Shown: positions 19,030 through 56,503, numbered from the stretch's first letter. The stretch: 64,000 nt of DNA from an uncultured bacterium (GCA_964655475.1 CAZZMO010000003.1:1329-65328), one strand, 5' to 3'. Notes: a model not told the origin generated them from the letters alone. Program-made: numbers and translations.

Positions 19030-19890
19030 ATGCGCAGTTTAGGGATCTTTTACTTCACATTACTTTGCACTTTTTCACTGAATGCAGAAAAAGTTGTTTT
19101 AATTTCAGGAAGTACTGGTGGGATTGGAGAGGCTACTGTGTGCGCTTTTCAAAAAGAGGGGTGGAGTGTTTGGGCTGGATATCGTAGTCACATTCCCGAT
19201 TCCTTTAGAGATCAAAACAATATCCATCCTATCTATTTGGATGTCAGAGATCCTGAATCGATCAATTCTTCTATCAAAGAGATTATCAAAGCAGAAGGGA
19301 AGATCGACCTTCTCATTAACAATGCAGGATATGGAATCCTTGGATCAGATGAACTCATTGCTCCTGAAGAAATAGAAAAGCTCTTTGAAGTGAACTTTTT
19401 TGGAGCGCTGAGGCTGATCCAACAGGTTGCCCCTTTCATGAAGAAAGAACATTCAGGCCATATCATTAATATCAGTAGCACCTCAGGAGTGAGAGCCGTT
19501 CCAGGTCTTGGAGCCTACGCTGCTTCTAAATTTGCTCTTGAAGGCCTTAGCGAAGCGCTAGCCGTCACCCTTTCTCCATGGAATATCCATGTAGTCGTTG
19601 TCGAACCAGGAACAGTCAAGAATGATTGGGCCTCCCATTGTCAATCTGACCATTCAAAACTCGCAGCTAATCTCCTTCAAAAACTCACCACCCTCGCAAA
19701 AAATGGACAAGAGCCGAGAGATATTGCATCCCTCCTCCTCCGTATCGCTAATGATCCTCATCCTGACATGCGCTACCAAACTTCCCCCCAAGTGCAAACC
19801 ACCCTCAAAGAGAAGCTCGTCGACCTCTCAGGAAACGCCATGCGAGAGAAGCAAACCACATTTTTCGACTCCCTTATGAAGGATCACTAG
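19030..19890 (+). CDS. SDR-family oxidoreductase with a signal-like leader
   Basis: ISGSTGGIG (TGxxxGxG), NNAG and YAASK are the classical SDR motifs. They are preceded by MRSLGIFYFTLLCTFSLNAEK. Confidence 0.8.
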   Translation: MRSLGIFYFTLLCTFSLNAEKVVLISGSTGGIGEATVCAFQKEGWSVWAGYRSHIPDSFRDQNNIHPIYLDVRDPESINSSIKEIIKAEGKIDLLINNAGYGILGSDELIAPEEIEKLFEVNFFGALRLIQQVAPFMKKEHSGHIINISSTSGVRAVPGLGAYAASKFALEGLSEALAVTLSPWNIHVVVVEPGTVKNDWASHCQSDHSKLAANLLQKLTTLAKNGQEPRDIASLLLRIANDPHPDMRYQTSPQVQTTLKEKLVDLSGNAMREKQTTFFDSLMKDH

Positions 19891-20194
19891 AGACAATATC
19901 CTCAAGCAGCTCCAGCCTGAGCCCCCACAAGGTGTTAGCACAACTCGTGATCTTCAGCCCACCTTTCATCATATTTTCGACCCAGGGGTCTAATTGCAGC
20001 GAGACAACTTTGAGCCCCGTTTCTTCAAGTAATTCACGCGTTGCAGAAGTTTCAGTCCTTTCCCCAAATTCTAAGTGCCCCCCAGGAAATCCCGAGCAAC
20101 CAACAACATGCGATTCCATTCTCTTCCCGAGAACTACCTTATTGTCTTTCTCTACCACACACCCAACCCCCACCCGCGGCCGTCTCTCAGACAT
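19874..20194 (-). CDS. NUDIX hydrolase paralog, shortened C-terminal half (possibly degenerate)
   Basis: The Nudix box GGHLEFGERTETSATRELLEETG is intact. It is collinear with the NUDIX at 33798-34217 up to WVENMMKGG, then lacks about 20 aa. Its ends overlap the neighbouring genes on both sides. Confidence 0.5.
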   Translation of the reverse strand: MSERRPRVGVGCVVEKDNKVVLGKRMESHVVGCSGFPGGHLEFGERTETSATRELLEETGLKVVSLQLDPWVENMMKGGLKITSCANTLWGLRLELLEDIVSSDPS

Positions 20195-20756
20195 CACTCC
20201 CATCCACAGTAGCACAAATGTTAGACACAACTCCCTTCAGAGCTTCCTCATAAGACTCGATTAAACATGGGTTTTTTATATTAAATTCAGGCATCCCATA
20301 GTAATATTTTATACAACCTCTCCGAGTCACAATAAAACTTATGTTGGGGACATCGACTTCAGAGTAGTCTGGCTTAAAAAAAAGAAGAGAAATTTCAACA
20401 TTCTTCGCAATAAAAGGGTAATTCGCTAGGTAAGGACGAACTTTTTCATTCCTATTCACCTCATTTACAAAGGTTTCAACAGCATAAACAATCAACTCTC
20501 TCGCTTCATCAAGCGATACATCTCTAAATCCTTGAAAGCTTAAGGCAAGCATTTGAATTTCATTCATCATTTGCCCTCCCGTTCCCACGAGATAAAGCTC
20601 TTTTTCAGTCGTAATTTGACGAGCAACTTTCATCATAATTCGATTAGTAAGAGTTTCTTTTTTTGATATCATATATCCCAAAGGAGTCAGGGGCAAGGTA
20701 TAGAACAACACTCCAAAAACAATGCACCCTATTATCCACCACTTATTGCGTTTCAA
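20187..20756 (-). CDS. Rhs-associated immunity-like membrane-anchored protein, array copy 3
   Basis: Paralog of 20770-21330 and 21344-21904. TM anchor WWIIGCIVFGVLFYTLPLTP. TTG start preceded by GAAGGA. Its C-terminus diverges from the other copies. Confidence 0.6.
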   Translation of the reverse strand: MKRNKWWIIGCIVFGVLFYTLPLTPLGYMISKKETLTNRIMMKVARQITTEKELYLVGTGGQMMNEIQMLALSFQGFRDVSLDEARELIVYAVETFVNEVNRNEKVRPYLANYPFIAKNVEISLLFFKPDYSEVDVPNISFIVTRRGCIKYYYGMPEFNIKNPCLIESYEEALKGVVSNICATVDGSDV

Positions 20757-20769
20757 CGGAATGTCCTTC

Positions 20770-21330
20770 TTAATTGGCTAAGGCCTTATCCTTTGCAGTG
20801 GTAAGAATTTTTAAGCTTTCATCATACTTTTCCACGAGCATTGGATTCCAGAGGTCATATGCGGGTCTTCCCGGATAGTACTCTATTTTTCCTCTGTTAT
20901 TAAAAATGTAAAAAATATGATTTGGACCCACACTAGTGTAGTCATTATTGTAAAACCAAATGCGAATTTCAATATTCTTCGCAGTAAAAGGGTAATTCGC
21001 AAGGTAAGGACGGGTTTTTTCATTCGCATTTACTTCATTTACAAAAGTCTCTACAGCATAAACAATCAGTTCTCTCGCTTCATCAAGCGATACATCTCTG
21101 AATCCGTCAAAACTTAAAGCAAGCATTTGAATTTCATTCATCATTTGGGCTCCCGTTCCGATGAGATAAAGCTCTTTTTCAGTCGTAATTTGACGAGCAA
21201 CTTTCATCATAATTCGATTAGTGAGAGTTTCTTTTTTTGCTATCATATATCCCAAAGGAGTCATGGGCAAGGTATAGAACAACACTCCAAAAACAATACA
21301 GCCTATTATCCACCACTTATTGCGTTTCAA
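20770..21330 (-). CDS. Rhs-associated immunity-like membrane-anchored protein, array copy 2
   Basis: The N-terminal ~100 aa are nearly identical to copies 1 and 3. TTG start preceded by GAAGGA. Confidence 0.6.
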   Translation of the reverse strand: MKRNKWWIIGCIVFGVLFYTLPMTPLGYMIAKKETLTNRIMMKVARQITTEKELYLIGTGAQMMNEIQMLALSFDGFRDVSLDEARELIVYAVETFVNEVNANEKTRPYLANYPFTAKNIEIRIWFYNNDYTSVGPNHIFYIFNNRGKIEYYPGRPAYDLWNPMLVEKYDESLKILTTAKDKALAN

Positions 21331-21343
21331 CGGAATGTCCTTC

Positions 21344-21904
21344 TTAATTGTCTAAGGCCTTATCCTTTGCAGTGGTAAGAATTTTTAAGCTTTCATCATA
21401 CTTTTCCACGAGCATTGGATTTCTGAGGTTATATGCAGGTTCTCCTGGATAATATTCTATTTTTCCTCTGTTGTTAAAAATAAAAGAAATGTAATTTGAG
21501 TCAACCATAGAATAATCTAGTTTATTAAACCAAATGCGAATTTCCACATTCTTTTCTGTAAAAGGATCGTTTGCTAGATAAGGTTTAATCTTCTTACATG
21601 AATTGACTTCATTCACAAAGGTTTCTGTAGAGAAAACGATTAATTCTCTTGCTTCATCAAGCGATATATCTCTGAATCCATCAAAACTCAAAGCAAGCAT
21701 TTGAATTTCATTCATCATTTGTGCCCCAGTTCCTACAAGATAGAGCTTCTTTTCAGCTGTAATCTTACGAGCTACTTTCATCATAATTCGATTAGTGAGA
21801 GTTTCTTTTTTTGATATCATATATCCCAAAGGAGTCAGGGGCAAGGTATAGAATAATACTCCAAAAATAATACACCCTATTATCCACCACTTATTATTTT
21901 TCAT
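21344..21904 (-). CDS. Rhs-associated immunity-like membrane-anchored protein, array copy 1 (cognate position for the orphan toxin)
   Basis: Its ATG overlaps the stop of the orphan Rhs-CT ORF (ATGA, 4-nt overlap). It is homologous to 23460-24002 (shared LVG.G.QMMN.I.MLAL.F, Y...PF.A.N). Confidence 0.6.
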   Translation of the reverse strand: MKNNKWWIIGCIIFGVLFYTLPLTPLGYMISKKETLTNRIMMKVARKITAEKKLYLVGTGAQMMNEIQMLALSFDGFRDISLDEARELIVFSTETFVNEVNSCKKIKPYLANDPFTEKNVEIRIWFNKLDYSMVDSNYISFIFNNRGKIEYYPGEPAYNLRNPMLVEKYDESLKILTTAKDKALDN

Positions 21905-23271
21905 TTAAAATCTCCTGATTGGTCGATAAACTGGTTTATGTGGTTAGATATTTTTTTAGTAAATGTTGGGCTGTTAAAGGCGTGGTCGAATTTGGGGGCA
22001 GAGGGGTGGGAATCTAGGAAGGTGATTTCGTGCGCATGAAAAGGGTCGTTAAATATTGCATGCCAAACAACAAAGTCCCATTTTGTTGCATAATTAAAGG
22101 ATAGATAACACAGCTCGTTAGGGATGATCGCACCGGGGGCAATGGCGAGGGAGATGACGCGATTGCGAACTTCGGGGGAGGCCATCATGAGGGCATTTCT
22201 CACTTGGATGGAACCTCCGCTGTGACTGCCTAAAAACATTTTTGCGTCGGGTGGGGCGGTTTTGTGAAACCGTTGCATTTCTCTAAGGATCAAAAAGCTC
22301 ACATTTGTTGGCATGATTTTTGATGCTAGTAGGCATTCGAGGCTATCGATGGGAGCGGAATCTGTCTGATTGTGGATGCCACGCACTAAGACTCCACCCC
22401 CAAGATTGCTGAGCATTTGCGCGTGTTGTTTGGCGTCTTTCAAACTAGTATTGATACCATTTACAAAATAGATTTCAGCGAATGTTAGCTTTTTTGTCCC
22501 TACTTCGTAAAGAGAAGAAGTTAGGGGTTCAGGGGGATTGAGGTTAAAGCGGAACTGATCGTTAAGGTGGTTGAGATTGGTATTAAAGAGGACAGAATAG
22601 AGCCCTGTGAAGTCGGTGAAGCGGAAGGGGTTGTTGCGGACGAAGGTATAGAGGTTGACGACATCGATAGGGCCGAGGGGATCGGGGGTGGCCCAGCGGT
22701 TTGTTGTGGGGTTGTAGTAGCGTTTGCCGAAGTAGATGAGGTTGGTTTCTTTGTCGTGGTGTTTGAAGGCATAGCGGTAGGGGTTTTCGATGGATTCAAA
22801 GATGTAGATGGGGATGCCAAAGGGATCGAATTCGTAAGAGTTAATGATGGTGTGGGTTTTGGGATCGACGAGATAGCGGAGGGTGTGGGTTGCATCGAAG
22901 AGGGGAATAGCAAGGGTTCCATGGAGATCGAGGAGGACGTTTGCTATTTTTAGAGTAGTGGTCGTGCCGATCTCTTCGAGGCCATCGTAGAGGTAAAGCT
23001 CATCTCCTTTGGAGAGGCGCCTACCGAGGGCATCGTAGGTAAAGTGGATGAGGCCTGCTTGGATCAATCGATCATGTTCATCGTAGGTGAGGGGAAGTCC
23101 GTTAGCGGCTCTGAGATTACCCGTTGCTGGAACGTCAGGAAGATCGTAGTGGGAATCAAACTCACCTCCTAGCTGAGAAAGTTCATCATAGTTATAGGAA
23201 TTAGGGGTAGCAAAGGTGAGATTTCCAAGGGGATCGTAGTGACACTCCTGGGAAAGATGGGGCATGGTCAA
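21901..23271 (-). CDS. orphan Rhs C-terminal module: last ~220 aa of the Rhs core plus a divergent alpha/beta-hydrolase-like toxin domain
   Basis: Residues 4-228 are near-identical to the full-length Rhs core end (PHLSQECHYDPLGN...NPFRFTDFTGL). The tip then differs, carrying VNGINT, GSHSGGS and DHAF. TTG start at 23271, or ATG at 23265. Confidence 0.7.
   Translation of the reverse strand: MTMPHLSQECHYDPLGNLTFATPNSYNYDELSQLGGEFDSHYDLPDVPATGNLRAANGLPLTYDEHDRLIQAGLIHFTYDALGRRLSKGDELYLYDGLEEIGTTTTLKIANVLLDLHGTLAIPLFDATHTLRYLVDPKTHTIINSYEFDPFGIPIYIFESIENPYRYAFKHHDKETNLIYFGKRYYNPTTNRWATPDPLGPIDVVNLYTFVRNNPFRFTDFTGLYSVLFNTNLNHLNDQFRFNLNPPEPLTSSLYEVGTKKLTFAEIYFVNGINTSLKDAKQHAQMLSNLGGGVLVRGIHNQTDSAPIDSLECLLASKIMPTNVSFLILREMQRFHKTAPPDAKMFLGSHSGGSIQVRNALMMASPEVRNRVISLAIAPGAIIPNELCYLSFNYATKWDFVVWHAIFNDPFHAHEITFLDSHPSAPKFDHAFNSPTFTKKISNHINQFIDQSGDFK
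22591..23262 (-). repeat. 672-nt Rhs core-end repeat, orphan copy
   Basis: Aligns nucleotide-for-nucleotide with 24716-25387, with long identical runs across roughly the 3'-proximal 400 nt. Visibly more G+C-rich than its flanks. Confidence 0.85.
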
Positions 23272-23459
23272 ACCAAGAAGCGTCTGGATGAGGATCTAAA
23301 AAAGTCATTAGGAATTTTCCGATGCACTGATTAAAATGCTTCTTATTTTAAGAATTCAATCTTGACTTCCTTGCTCTGCCTTAGAAGGGTTTGCAAAAGC
23401 AATCTTAAAGAAGTGAGAGTGGTTAGTTCCTTTATACTTACTGATGTGTAAAAATAACT

Positions 23460-24002
23460 TTAATAAGTAGTCATGATTTTCACTGCTTCTTCGTAACTTT
23501 CCTGATAGAAGAGGATTCTTGGATAATTTTTAATAATATTATCGCGGTAATAAAAAAGTGTGCCATCAATAGCAGATATGTAATAAAGTTTGTGCTTTTC
23601 CACATTAGATCCATCAGGTTTGTGAACATAAATACCAATGTTAATATTATTGGCTGTGAAAGGGTATGGCTTTAGATAGCGGCGTAGTTCTTTGCTTTGA
23701 TTGATTTGATTGAGATAGGTTTGGACAGCAGTGATTAGAAGATGTCTTGCTTTCGGTAAATCTACCTCTTCCGCATATTCGAATTTTAATGCCAACATTT
23801 CAATTCCGTTCATCATCTGCCCACCGCTCCCTACCAATAGCAACTTCTCTTCAATAAGTAATTTTTTTGCTGTAACCTCTCTGATTTGTGCTACGATCAA
23901 ACTTTCTCTGGACGCAGTATTTTTATGTGGAGTCAGATTAGGTAATCCCAATAATATTGTGTTATTTACAAGAAATATTGATAAAAATAGATAAATTTTC
24001 AT
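23460..24002 (-). CDS. immunity-like protein cognate to the full-length Rhs toxin (signal/anchor plus conserved core)
   Basis: Its ATG shares one nt with the Rhs stop (TAATG). 180 aa. It is homologous to the three array copies but divergent. Confidence 0.6.
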   Translation of the reverse strand: MKIYLFLSIFLVNNTILLGLPNLTPHKNTASRESLIVAQIREVTAKKLLIEEKLLLVGSGGQMMNGIEMLALKFEYAEEVDLPKARHLLITAVQTYLNQINQSKELRRYLKPYPFTANNINIGIYVHKPDGSNVEKHKLYYISAIDGTLFYYRDNIIKNYPRILFYQESYEEAVKIMTTY

Positions 24003-27000
24003 TAGTTTTTCCTGTTCATATATTCTTCAACGTTGTCTTTTAGTTGGGGTTGATAAGTTTGGCTATCCCAATTGTGGTCGTTCCATTTATTCGAACTAGG
24101 GTGTGGGTTAAGGTATATAAGTTGAGGTTTTAACTTAGGGGTCATTACAGTTGCCAACAACGCCACTAGATCGTTCGTACTAGCATAATTATAGGCTCTA
24201 TAGCATAGCTGTCCATCGATAATTGCGCTAGGACCCAGAGCTACGGTATAAAGACGATTGCGAATGATAGAGGGAGAAAAATATAGCGTATTCCTTATTT
24301 CTGTTGTGCCACCACTGTAGCCGCACAAGAAAAATTTCGCTGAGGGGGGTCTATAGGCATGTTCTACGGTGAGAGTACCGAAGAGGTGTCTTTCTACAGG
24401 GGATAGCGGCATGTAAATAGGCCGAGCTCTTACCGAGTACTCAAAAAGATCACAAGCACCGCCGTTAGATGGGTTATAGATTCCAATGGTCTTTGTATCT
24501 CCAGCATATTCACTAATTGTTTGTATGGCGTGCTCTGTTCTGCTAATAGGAGAGTTGATTCCATGTATGTAAATCAGACATTTATCTATACGGTTAAAAT
24601 TTCCTGCGTAGATGGATTTGACGCGATCAGCTTTTTGCTCTGAAAGTGCAATAGCGTGGCTGTAGGGATACTTTGTGTGGTCGATATTGTGATTGAGTTC
24701 AAATTGTTGATAGGGGACGGAATAGAGCCCGGTGTAGTCGGTGAAGCGGAAGGGGTTGTTGCGGACGAAGGTGTAGAGGTTGACGACGTCGATGGGGCCG
24801 AGGGGATCGGGGGTGGCCCAGCGGTTTGTTGTGGGGTTGTAGTAGCGTTTGCCGAAGTAGATGAGGTTGGTTTCTTTGTCGTGGTGTTTGAAGGCATAGC
24901 GGTAGGGGTTTTCGATGGATTCAAAGATGTAGATGGGGATGCCAAAGGGATCGAATTCGTAAGAGTTAATGATGGTGTGGGTTTTGGGATCGACGAGATA
25001 GCGGAGGGTGTGGGTTGCATCGAAGAGGGGAATAGCAAGGGTTCCATGGAGATCGAGGAGGACGTTTGCTATTTTTAGAGTAGTGGTCGTGCCGATCTCT
25101 TCGAGGCCATCGTAGAGGTAAAGCTCATCTCCTTTGGAGAGGCGCCTTCCGAGGGCGTCGTAGGTAAAGTGGGTGGTTCCGGCTTGGATGAGGCGATCGT
25201 GATCATCGTAGATAAGGGAAAGTCCGTTGGCAATGGAAAGGTTTCCTGTCAAAGGGGCGTCAGGAGGATCGTAGTGGGAATCAAACTCACCTCCTAGCTG
25301 AGAAAGTTCATCATAGCTATAGGAATTAGGGGTAGCAAAGGTGAGGTTACCGAGGGGATCGTAGTGACACTCTTGGGAAAGATGGGGTGCTTTGATCTTT
25401 AGGATTTGCCCTTGGGCATCTCGCGTATAGGTCGTCGGGCCACTTTTTAATAGATGTCCTGCTTGATTATATGAGTATTCATGAGTGTAGTCTTTGTATG
25501 AAATGCTTTTGAGTCGAAGATCGTAGGTGTAGAAAACAGTTCCCGTTGGTAGCTTCATGGTAAGAGGGCGGTCGAGATCGTCGTAAGTTTTAGTGATCGA
25601 GAGTCCATTCGAAAAGGTTTCTTGAAGAACATTTCCAAAAGGGTCTATGTTCCGAACAAATCCAGTCCCCTTAATGAGATGTCCTAATTTGTTGTATTCA
25701 AAGGTGTCAGAACCGTTAGAGAGAATGTTCCCTAAGCGATCGTAGGTGTACTCAATCGAAGTCCCGTCTGGTTTGATTTTTGTTTTGCTTGCACGGTCAT
25801 ATAGGTAGGTTGTGATCTCCCCATCTCGGTTGACTGAAGCGAGTTTATTCGTCGGGGTGTAGCTATATTCAGTAATGAGCGTTTTAAGGAGAGTCCCCTG
25901 TTTATAGACCTCTTCTTCTTGGCGGATGAGATTACCCGCAAGGTCATACGTATATCGGAAGGTTTGGATGTTCGGGATCACTTTCGAGATGAGGTTTTCA
26001 TAGATGTCGTATGTTTCTATCGTGACAGTTCCCTTGGGATCTCTCGTGATTTTTTGAAGACCTTGATACTCAATCGTTGTAGTGTTTCCGAGGGGATCAG
26101 TATGAGCGATTAAACGTTTTAGAGGGTCGTAGGTAAAGGTTTCTGTTGAGTCACCATTTGTGATGGAAGATTGATTTCCATCTTCATCGTAGGTGTATCG
26201 GGTTTTTGAGTAGGGAGTCGATTCTTCGATGATGCGATCTAAAAAGTCGTAGGTGTAAGTAGTGGTGATCCCACCTTTATTCATGTGGGCCAAGCGGCTG
26301 AGGGAATCATATGCATATTCAATCACCCGATTACACCGCTCTTCTCTGATTTTGCGTCCTAATTCATCATAGGTGTATTCGGTTCTATACCCTTCAAGAT
26401 CGGTCCATGACAGTAAGCGGTAGGGATCATATGTGTAAGTCTCTTCGCCAATCCCTTCATAGATCTTCGATGTGACTCTTCCAAAAGAATCATATTCATA
26501 TCTAATCCTATTTCCATCGAGATCGGTGTGCTCTTTTAAAAGACCGTTTGGATAATAGCTGTAAGATTCTGAGGTGTTGTCAGGGTAGTCGATTTTTAGT
26601 GGTTGGTTTCTCGCATTGTACGAATAGTAGGTGGTATGTCCATTTCCATCTGTTTTACTAATCTCTCTTCCGTAGATGTCATAAGAGGACTCTGTCACCC
26701 GGTTTCCATGAATGGTTTTGATGAGATGCTTGTCTTGATAGGTGTAATAGGTAGTGCCGAAACGATCTGTTTTTTCTATTAGATTGTCAGCTTTATCGTA
26801 CTTATAGGTAGTTGTATAAAGAGCATCGGAGAATTTTTTTAGACGACCCCGTTTGTCATACTCCATCTTCTGGTAAGGTTTTGAAGAAGAAGTCATTCTC
26901 CCTTCGTGGTCGTAAGTATAGAGAAACTTTTGACCTAGAGCGTTCGTCTCTGAAACGACATTGCCCCTTGGGTTATACTCTCGATAGATCGAATAGAGAA

Positions 27001-56080: not shown

Positions 56081-56503
56081 TGGAGGTGGAGAGAATCGAA
56101 CTCTCGTCCTTAGCAAGATTCACACTGATGACTACATGCTTAGCCTCTCAAGGTGTAAAGTCAGCGTTGCTATAAGAGGCCCTACTGGGCGCTGACTTCA
56201 CCCGTAATTCTCGGGTGTTACCTTACGAGTGTCTAGGGTAACACTCACACCAAGTGGTATGACGATGAGAAGAAGGCCCTTGGTCCAGACTTCAGCCATC
56301 GGCTGGTTAAACTATTAAGTATTAAGCAGCAATTTTTTTAAGAGCTTCAGGTTGAGCATCTCCGAAGAGAGAAACAACCTTTGTGCTCTTTTGACGACGT
56401 CTATTAGCGACAGTTATCAATTTACCGGATGATTTAGGAGGCCAACCGATATCCTCCGCATGCCACCATTGTTGCACTTCAAAGTCGAAGCCATTACACC
56501 CCC
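56081..56503 (-). ncRNA. ssrA: tmRNA (transfer-messenger RNA)
   Basis: 5' GGGGGUG pairs with 3' CACCUCC-A, including the G3.U pair that is the alanine identity element. T-arm GAGAGUUCGAUUCUCUC. An internal frame from GCU (56408) to UAA (56322) encodes ANRRRQKSTKVVSLFGDAQPEALKKIAA. CCA is not encoded. Confidence 0.9.

Follow-up and report, generated by a model that had tools for sequence, protein, structure and literature searches.

The rhs locus

A 64,000-nucleotide (nt) stretch of DNA from an uncultured bacterium (GCA_964655475.1 CAZZMO010000003.1:1329-65328), hereafter called the window, contains a full-length rhs toxin gene followed by a 5′-truncated rhs fragment that ends in another C-terminal toxin domain, or tip. 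All genes of the rhs locus are on the minus strand. In gene order, with lengths in amino acids (aa), they are as follows:

24002-28555, minus strand: full-length (main) rhs gene, 1517 aa from a GTG at 28555, with an ATG at 28552
24005-24715, minus strand: tip of the main protein, 237 aa, a predicted alpha/beta-hydrolase with the nucleophile motif GYSGG
23460-24002, minus strand: immA, 180 aa with a hydrophobic N-terminus, the presumed immunity gene of the main tip, with Shine-Dalgarno sequence AGGAAA
23263-23459, minus strand: unique 197-nt spacer between immA and the orphan copy of the repeat described below
21901-23271, minus strand: orphan rhs-CT (C-terminal) open reading frame, 456 aa from a TTG or 454 aa from the ATG at 23265
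21904-22590, minus strand: tip of the orphan, 229 aa, a predicted alpha/beta-hydrolase
21344-21904, minus strand: imm1, 186 aa, the immunity gene presumed to be cognate to the orphan tip, with Shine-Dalgarno sequence AGGAG
20770-21330, minus strand: imm2, 186 aa, tandem paralogue with a TTG start and the ribosome-binding site GAAGGA
20187-20756, minus strand: imm3, 189 aa, tandem paralogue with a TTG start, the ribosome-binding site GAAGGA and a divergent C-terminal half

The region is very probably an orphan rhs-CT/immunity module directly 3′ of a full-length Rhs toxin gene with a predicted Sec signal and of its immunity gene immA, in an environmental chlamydia, and one that recombination could switch. 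At the level of sequence, it has every feature by which such modules are recognised in Salmonella, Serratia and further proteobacteria (PMC3150448, PMC3967940, PMC4524185).

The shell of the main protein matches PF05593 (expectation value (E) 1e-56) and TIGR01643 (E 1e-45) in Pfam and NCBIfam, and TIGR03696 (Rhs_assc_core) matches residues 1202-1277. The N-terminus reads VMHYFLVLFLLLQGLCFA and then DDPF, a Sec-type signal peptide as predicted by reading the sequence; a Pfam search gave no PAAR domain and no other domain for trafficking. Upstream of the start codon there is at best a weak purine-rich GAAGAG that could serve as a Shine-Dalgarno sequence. No secretion-system genes were found among the 20 other open reading frames that were screened against Pfam, a screen that covered part of the window.

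An identical copy of the 627-aa signal peptidase I (LepB) encoded in the window occurs in a single sequencing-run assembly only. The best named relatives of this LepB all belong to Chlamydiota, Parachlamydiales or Rhabdochlamydiaceae (approximately 48-50% identity), and the nearest relatives of the Rhs protein are also labelled chlamydial. Judged by these similarities, the host is an environmental member of Chlamydiota.

The base composition of the locus is uneven: the immunity genes and the spacer contain 34-36% G+C, compared with approximately 43% for the window, and the GC skew of the plus strand is strongly positive (0.26-0.29) at 22001-26000, a span that takes in the orphan together with the 3′ part of rhs. 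A 31-nt inverted repeat (21455/28583) with 71% complementarity was dismissed as a chance occurrence.

The direct repeat

The main gene and the orphan share a long direct repeat, whose parts are as follows:

22587-23262, minus strand: orphan copy of the repeat
24712-25387, minus strand: main-gene copy of the repeat, covering the final 225 codons of the Rhs core
22670-23022 and 24795-25147, minus strand: identical block of 353 nt with no mismatch, the likeliest tract of crossover or gene conversion
23023-23141, minus strand: hypervariable patch, 33 of the 45 mismatches in 119 nt, with a synonymous divergence (dS) of 1.06

The two copies are in register at an offset of 2125 nt and differ over 676 nt by 45 mismatches and no gaps (93.3% identity; 93.4% according to blastn). 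When the sequence is compared with itself at this offset, identity rises from random to 93-100% over the repeat and is random again at either end, and the 353-nt block is exact. A first-pass annotation of the window had placed the repeat at 22591-23262 and 24716-25387; the repeat is real, and those coordinates miss 4 nt on the tip side (22587/24712). With the genes on the minus strand, this side is the repeat's 3′ end in gene orientation. The other two properties that it had ascribed to the ends of the repeat are borne out. The upstream boundary at 23262/25387 is sharp, identity being random from 23263. The downstream end coincides with the boundary between Rhs core and tip: TIGR03696 ends at the L of D[Y/F]TGL, at residue 1277 in the main protein and 224 in the orphan, and nucleotide identity stops three codons past the core-terminal PFRFTD[Y/F]TGL, a motif that fits the PxxxxDPxGL-type boundary except that Y or F stands for P. 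The amino acid differences between the copies had been described as confined to the first third, which is correct for most of them, but there is an extra Y/F difference in the TD[Y/F]TGL motif.

The mismatches are not scattered over the repeat. In 200,000 trials that placed the 45 mismatches at random, no mismatch-free run reached 353 nt (permutation p < 5e-6), and the dS of successive segments in gene order is 0.18 (5′ segment), 1.06 (hypervariable patch), 0 (identical block) and 0.30 (3′ segment). A single duplication or acquisition cannot explain this mosaic, whereas gene conversion between the copies or exchange with other alleles fits; the mosaic divergence points to past recombination. 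Over the whole repeat, the ratio of nonsynonymous to synonymous divergence (dN/dS) is 0.19, and thus both copies evolved as coding sequence.

The toxin tips

Beyond the repeat, the main and orphan tips are homologous but strongly diverged (29% identity, E 1e-31), as the first-pass annotation had supposed. They and their few aligned database relatives share an NGI motif and a nucleophile motif of the form xHSxG or GYSGG. Neither tip belongs to any significant Pfam or NCBIfam family, DUF2235 included, and searches of Pfam, NCBIfam and the sequences of the PDB gave only sub-threshold matches to hydrolases (DUF687 with E 0.086, cutinases with E 0.003-2). An AlphaFold (AF2) model of the orphan tip has a predicted local distance difference test score (pLDDT) of 85, and its Foldseek matches are esterases, lipases, cutinases and thioesterases of the alpha/beta-hydrolase fold (E from 6e-6, template modelling (TM) score of approximately 0.5). 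The predicted catalytic triad of the orphan tip consists of Ser124 (22219-22221), Asp172 (22075-22077) and His203 (21982-21984), which occupy invariant columns in the alignment of homologues. Both tips are predicted, with the structural model as a guide, to belong to one family of esterase- or lipase-like alpha/beta-hydrolase toxins with a Ser-Asp-His triad.

The reading frame of the orphan is intact, encoding 227 residues of the core, within which Rhs_assc_core is recognised (TIGR03696 at residues 149-224, E 7e-20), and then the 229-residue tip. Since the tip is intact and dN/dS over the repeat is 0.19, the orphan is not a decaying duplicate, and the confident hydrolase model agrees with this.

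When 1.84 billion representative proteins were searched exhaustively, 925 homologues of the tip were found, in all of which the homologous domain is C-terminal; all six of the long homologues examined are RHS proteins, and the tip is thus one that recurs on Rhs proteins. Two mid-sized homologues (P0245 and P0260) that consist of a partial core and a tip look like further orphans. In a 261-aa homologue (P0235), a signal peptide and approximately 55 residues resembling the N-terminus of the main Rhs protein (40% identity, E 2e-6) lead directly into a tip of the orphan type (51% identity), so that the protein resembles the toxin with its shell left out.

The immunity genes

The ATG of immA overlaps the stop codon of rhs by one nucleotide, and imm1 begins in an ATGA overlap with the stop codon of the orphan, which amounts to translational coupling. 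Counting imm1, three immunity paralogues in tandem (20187-21904), with a period of 574 nt, come after the orphan, an array that the first-pass annotation did not include. The products of imm1 and imm2 are 81% identical (dN/dS 0.14), that of imm3 is 74-77% identical to both (dN/dS 0.16-0.28), and all three are 34-39% identical to ImmA. All immunity proteins of the locus have hydrophobic N-termini. Their family has at least 77 members in the databases, most of which open with a lipoprotein signal peptide (lipobox); not one contains a Pfam domain, and only one bears a functional name, its source having labelled it a ribosomal protein. The structure of Imm1 was modelled with a pLDDT of 92, and Foldseek found no neighbour in the PDB below E 0.08. 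If the immunity proteins are exported, the target of the toxins would be on the periplasmic side of the envelope, by the same logic that applies to lipase effectors with periplasmic immunity proteins.

The dS among imm1, imm2 and imm3 (0.6-1.3), with C-terminal halves that are much more diverged, suggests an old divergence under purifying selection (dN/dS 0.14-0.28) that produced a small immunity repertoire. It is possible, though somewhat doubtful, that this repertoire is the main reason why the module persists: the three genes would be a reservoir of immunity selected against the related tips of neighbours, and the orphan tip a hitch-hiking remnant, seldom if ever put back to use. The integrity of all three paralogues, the selection acting on them, their age and the concentration of their divergence in the C-terminal half accord with such a reservoir, as do the ribosome-binding sites that imm2 and imm3 have of their own and the tandem immunity pairs found in two related loci (L003 and L005) and several other contigs. 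Against this reading, the tip of the orphan is intact with all catalytic residues kept, and its core fragment is under coding constraint. Moreover, a reservoir is compatible with a switchable orphan module and does not exclude it.

Two other observations concern this family and its surroundings. A truncated NUDIX paralogue (19874-20230, minus strand) overlaps the 3′ end of imm3 and is 54% identical over 79 aa to an intact NUDIX gene product of the window (33798-34217); it may mark the edge of an inserted toxin island. Some immunity homologues have a C-terminal extension, of approximately 250 aa in the 431-aa protein at 3967-5262 of locus L001 and approximately 100 aa in the 280-aa protein P0072.

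Switching and origin of the module

When a crossover is placed in silico within the identical block, 2125 nt are removed and a single 1509-aa reading frame results, in which the shell is joined to the orphan tip and imm1 follows directly. The first-pass annotation had proposed this very geometry, a 2125-bp deletion fusing the orphan tip to Rhs, and had regarded the orphan cassette as a substrate for recombination; the 227 core residues, the intact tip with its triad, the coupled imm1 and the 676-nt in-register repeat all agree with this. As a description of switching, a simple deletion is sound in its geometry but incomplete, because immA is lost along with the tip. In Salmonella, the main tip is likewise lost together with its immunity gene, and the switch was seen only after prior duplication of the locus (PMC3967940; Starsta 2020, PMC7043789). 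Given the loss of immA, the same constraint should apply here, unless imm1, imm2 and imm3 cross-protect.

Enzymatic activity, immunity function, an export route, a history of the locus and switching in nature may be inferred from these features as follows. Before any recombination, the orphan tip would probably be silent or non-exported. Recombination of the RecA type anywhere in the 676-nt repeat, and most readily within the 353-nt block, would delete the main tip, immA and the spacer, and in the recombinant a complete delivery shell would carry the orphan tip with imm1 still coupled to it. The immunity proteins, which would be exported and either membrane-anchored or lipoproteins, would neutralise both tips, and imm1, imm2 and imm3 would still be useful against neighbours armed with related tips. 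The origin of the module is most likely C-terminal displacement, in which a newly arriving tip/immunity cassette entered the core by recombination, displacing the older tip downstream; the mosaic of the repeat would have arisen from later gene conversion.

Several points weigh against a switchable module of this origin and function. A simple deletion would expose the recombinant, having dropped immA, to the main toxin of its siblings, and imm1, imm2 and imm3 resemble immA only to the extent of 34-39% identity. Both tips belong to one family, so local duplication and divergence are a possible origin. The perfect identity over 353 nt may be inflated by short-read assembly, which can collapse repeats. 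The hydrolase activity, the toxicity and the immunity of the tip/immunity pairs are predictions. Finally, two loci with tips 40-44% identical (L012 and L013) lack any recognisable Rhs core or immunity gene in the vicinity; the lack of an immunity gene implies that the tip family may not be exclusively antibacterial, and some of its members may be aimed at hosts rather than bacteria.

Local events could account for the origin without horizontal displacement or switching if the 3′ end of rhs and the immunity gene were duplicated in tandem, the copies diverged, and the cores were kept alike by gene conversion. The homology of the two tips and of all four immunity proteins would follow naturally, and imm1, imm2 and imm3 demonstrate that tandem duplication does occur in this locus. 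However, such a history appears unlikely: at each end of the repeat, a few bases suffice for identity to drop from 93-100% to random, nothing else in the window matches the 197-nt spacer, and the difference between tips (29% identity) and core (93%) would require extreme divergence together with continuous gene conversion that stops exactly at the DxxGL motif. Displacement by an incoming cassette remains the preferred account.

Expression of the orphan and integrity of the assembly

The orphan has two candidate start codons, an ATG at 23265-23263 and a TTG at 23271-23269. The first-pass annotation considered them to be just inside the boundary of the repeat and to permit independent expression, but they are just outside it, in the unique spacer that abuts the repeat, and such expression is not supported. 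No Shine-Dalgarno sequence is found upstream of the ATG, whereas immA, imm1, imm2 and imm3 each have one. A scan of the spacer found no sigma-70-like site and no terminator-like site, and promoter-like matches across the locus are at chance level (22 compared with 17.7 +/- 4.5 expected). The folded RNA of the spacer is no stabler than shuffled sequence (z -0.32), there is no Rfam match in 19800-29000, and blastn with a word size of 7 found no counterpart of the spacer elsewhere in the window and no remnants of core or immunity genes in it. With no terminator or stable structure between immA and the orphan, the downstream immunity genes could be transcribed by read-through.

It is improbable that the orphan is expressed from the junction ATG or TTG as a toxin-antitoxin-like module inside the producer cell. 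The in-frame start codons next to the repeat would allow it, the public annotation calls a 454-aa gene there and an identical 454-aa protein is found in an NCBI genome, read-through past immA is possible, and there is a precedent in the main and orphan Rhs tips of Salmonella (PMC7043789). Against it stand the missing Shine-Dalgarno sequence, the spacer devoid of promoter-like sites and the lack of a signal peptide in the would-be product; since the immunity proteins bear signals or anchors at their N-termini, neutralisation in the cytoplasm is implausible.

An assembly artefact, such as the joining of two strain variants of one locus through their shared core, is very improbable even though the genome is a singleton record with proteins found once only, on a 152-kb contig, and the 353-nt exact repeat exceeds the typical length of short reads, for a strain bubble would not create a unique spacer joining the end of immA to a truncated core fragment, the 45 mismatches indicate that the copies were resolved separately, and the layout is canonical for orphan modules.

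Comparison with known systems

The closest parallel is the rhs-main/rhs-CT-orphan locus of Salmonella Typhimurium (STM0291/STM0292; Koskiniemi 2014, PMC3967940). In both, an rhs gene of full length and its immunity gene are followed by a 5′-truncated rhs fragment with another tip and an immunity gene of its own; the cores form a near-identical direct repeat (522 bp at 95% identity in Salmonella, 676 nt at 93% here); and recombination, in silico in the present case, fuses the orphan tip to the delivery shell. The two loci differ in that the Rhs protein of Salmonella is linked to the type VI secretion system of SPI-6 (Salmonella pathogenicity island 6) whereas the chlamydial protein has a predicted Sec signal peptide, in that the tips of Salmonella are mutually unrelated and act in the cytoplasm whereas the chlamydial tips are of one hydrolase family and have exported immunity proteins, and in that the chlamydial orphan is followed by three immunity genes, two of them stand-alone extras.

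Poole (2011, PMC3150448) described orphan cdiA-CT/cdiI and rhs-CT/rhsI modules and cites the C-terminal displacement model of rhs evolution, as does PMC8125069. As in those modules, the chlamydial tip/immunity cassette is 3′ of the main gene and keeps a conserved piece up to a PxxxxDPxGL-type boundary. Unlike the arrays of Poole, there is one orphan only, its toxin is of the same family as the main tip, and the extra immunity genes have no tip fragment.

Predicted alpha/beta-hydrolases with a GxSxG-type motif and an exported, often lipoprotein, immunity protein are also found among the Tle/Tli lipase effectors and Tox-ABhydrolase (Zhang 2012, PMC3482391), but the chlamydial tips match no Tle family (e.g. 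DUF2235), no type VI context was seen, and the immunity fold has no neighbour in the PDB. The same study defined a signal-peptide ('T2SS', type II secretion system) class of polymorphic toxins and listed RHS toxins in chlamydiae. The main protein resembles this class and WapA of Bacillus subtilis in that a predicted N-terminal signal peptide replaces the PAAR or VgrG-binding domains ahead of an RHS shell, a variable tip and an immunity gene. WapA, however, is a Gram-positive protein with tRNase tips, whereas a chlamydial toxin has an outer membrane to cross.

Literature searches on Rhs orphans in chlamydiae yielded general surveys only, and neither a main-plus-orphan layout nor this toxin-immunity family was found described for the phylum. 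The mobilisation of orphan Rhs tips is established in enterobacteria, and therefore the mechanism itself adds nothing new; the value is in the setting, a complete main-plus-orphan layout with sequence signs of past recombination in Chlamydiota, whose polymorphic toxins have been listed before but hardly studied.

Related loci in other chlamydiae

No sister strain was found: exact look-ups of the orphan and immA returned no indexed contig, a scan of species-representative genomes found one distant locus (L001, 56% identity), a first scan of metagenomes for sister loci found nothing, and an alignment-based rescan found 13 distant loci, none of which has the main-plus-orphan layout. The pairing of toxin and immunity genes with overlapping stop and start codons does recur, in the Rhs-type locus L001, in L021 (a 3.6-kb contig that opens at the end of an Rhs core) and in the non-Rhs loci L003, L006, L008 and L014. 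The Rhs protein of L001 shares 53% identity with the main protein across 1308 aa and ends in a tip of the orphan type, followed by an immunity homologue; by these alignments, L001 is a relative in which an orphan-type tip is on a full-length shell.

In loci L002, L003, L006-L010 and L014, the hydrolase is at the end of a different chlamydial carrier of 470-570 aa, composed of an N-terminal domain, one transmembrane segment, a proline-rich linker and the hydrolase, and an immunity homologue, usually a lipoprotein, is directly 3′ (two in tandem in L003). In L005, two tandem immunity copies follow the end of a hydrolase gene that is truncated by the contig, and the carrier is off the contig.

The toxin and its exported immunity protein represent an unannotated family that is apparently common in environmental chlamydiae and a candidate agent of competition between co-infecting symbionts. 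Tentatively, a chlamydia of the obligate intracellular type may keep a re-tippable arsenal of Sec-exported Rhs proteins with envelope-attacking hydrolases and diversified exported immunities, the toxin family (925 clusters) being distributed on Rhs and membrane-anchored carriers. If this is true, conflict of chlamydia versus chlamydia would be frequent within shared hosts.

Two further observations were made. In L011 (6282-11246), a stand-alone 675-aa Rhs fragment with a core 61% identical to that of the window and an unrelated tip has no full-length rhs upstream, and is followed by eight small open reading frames, one with a weak Imm32 match, that resemble a poly-immunity array. Elsewhere in the window, a transfer-messenger RNA (tmRNA) gene (56081-56503, minus strand) has an unusually long predicted tag peptide, VANRRRQKSTKVVSLFGDAQPEALKKIAA.

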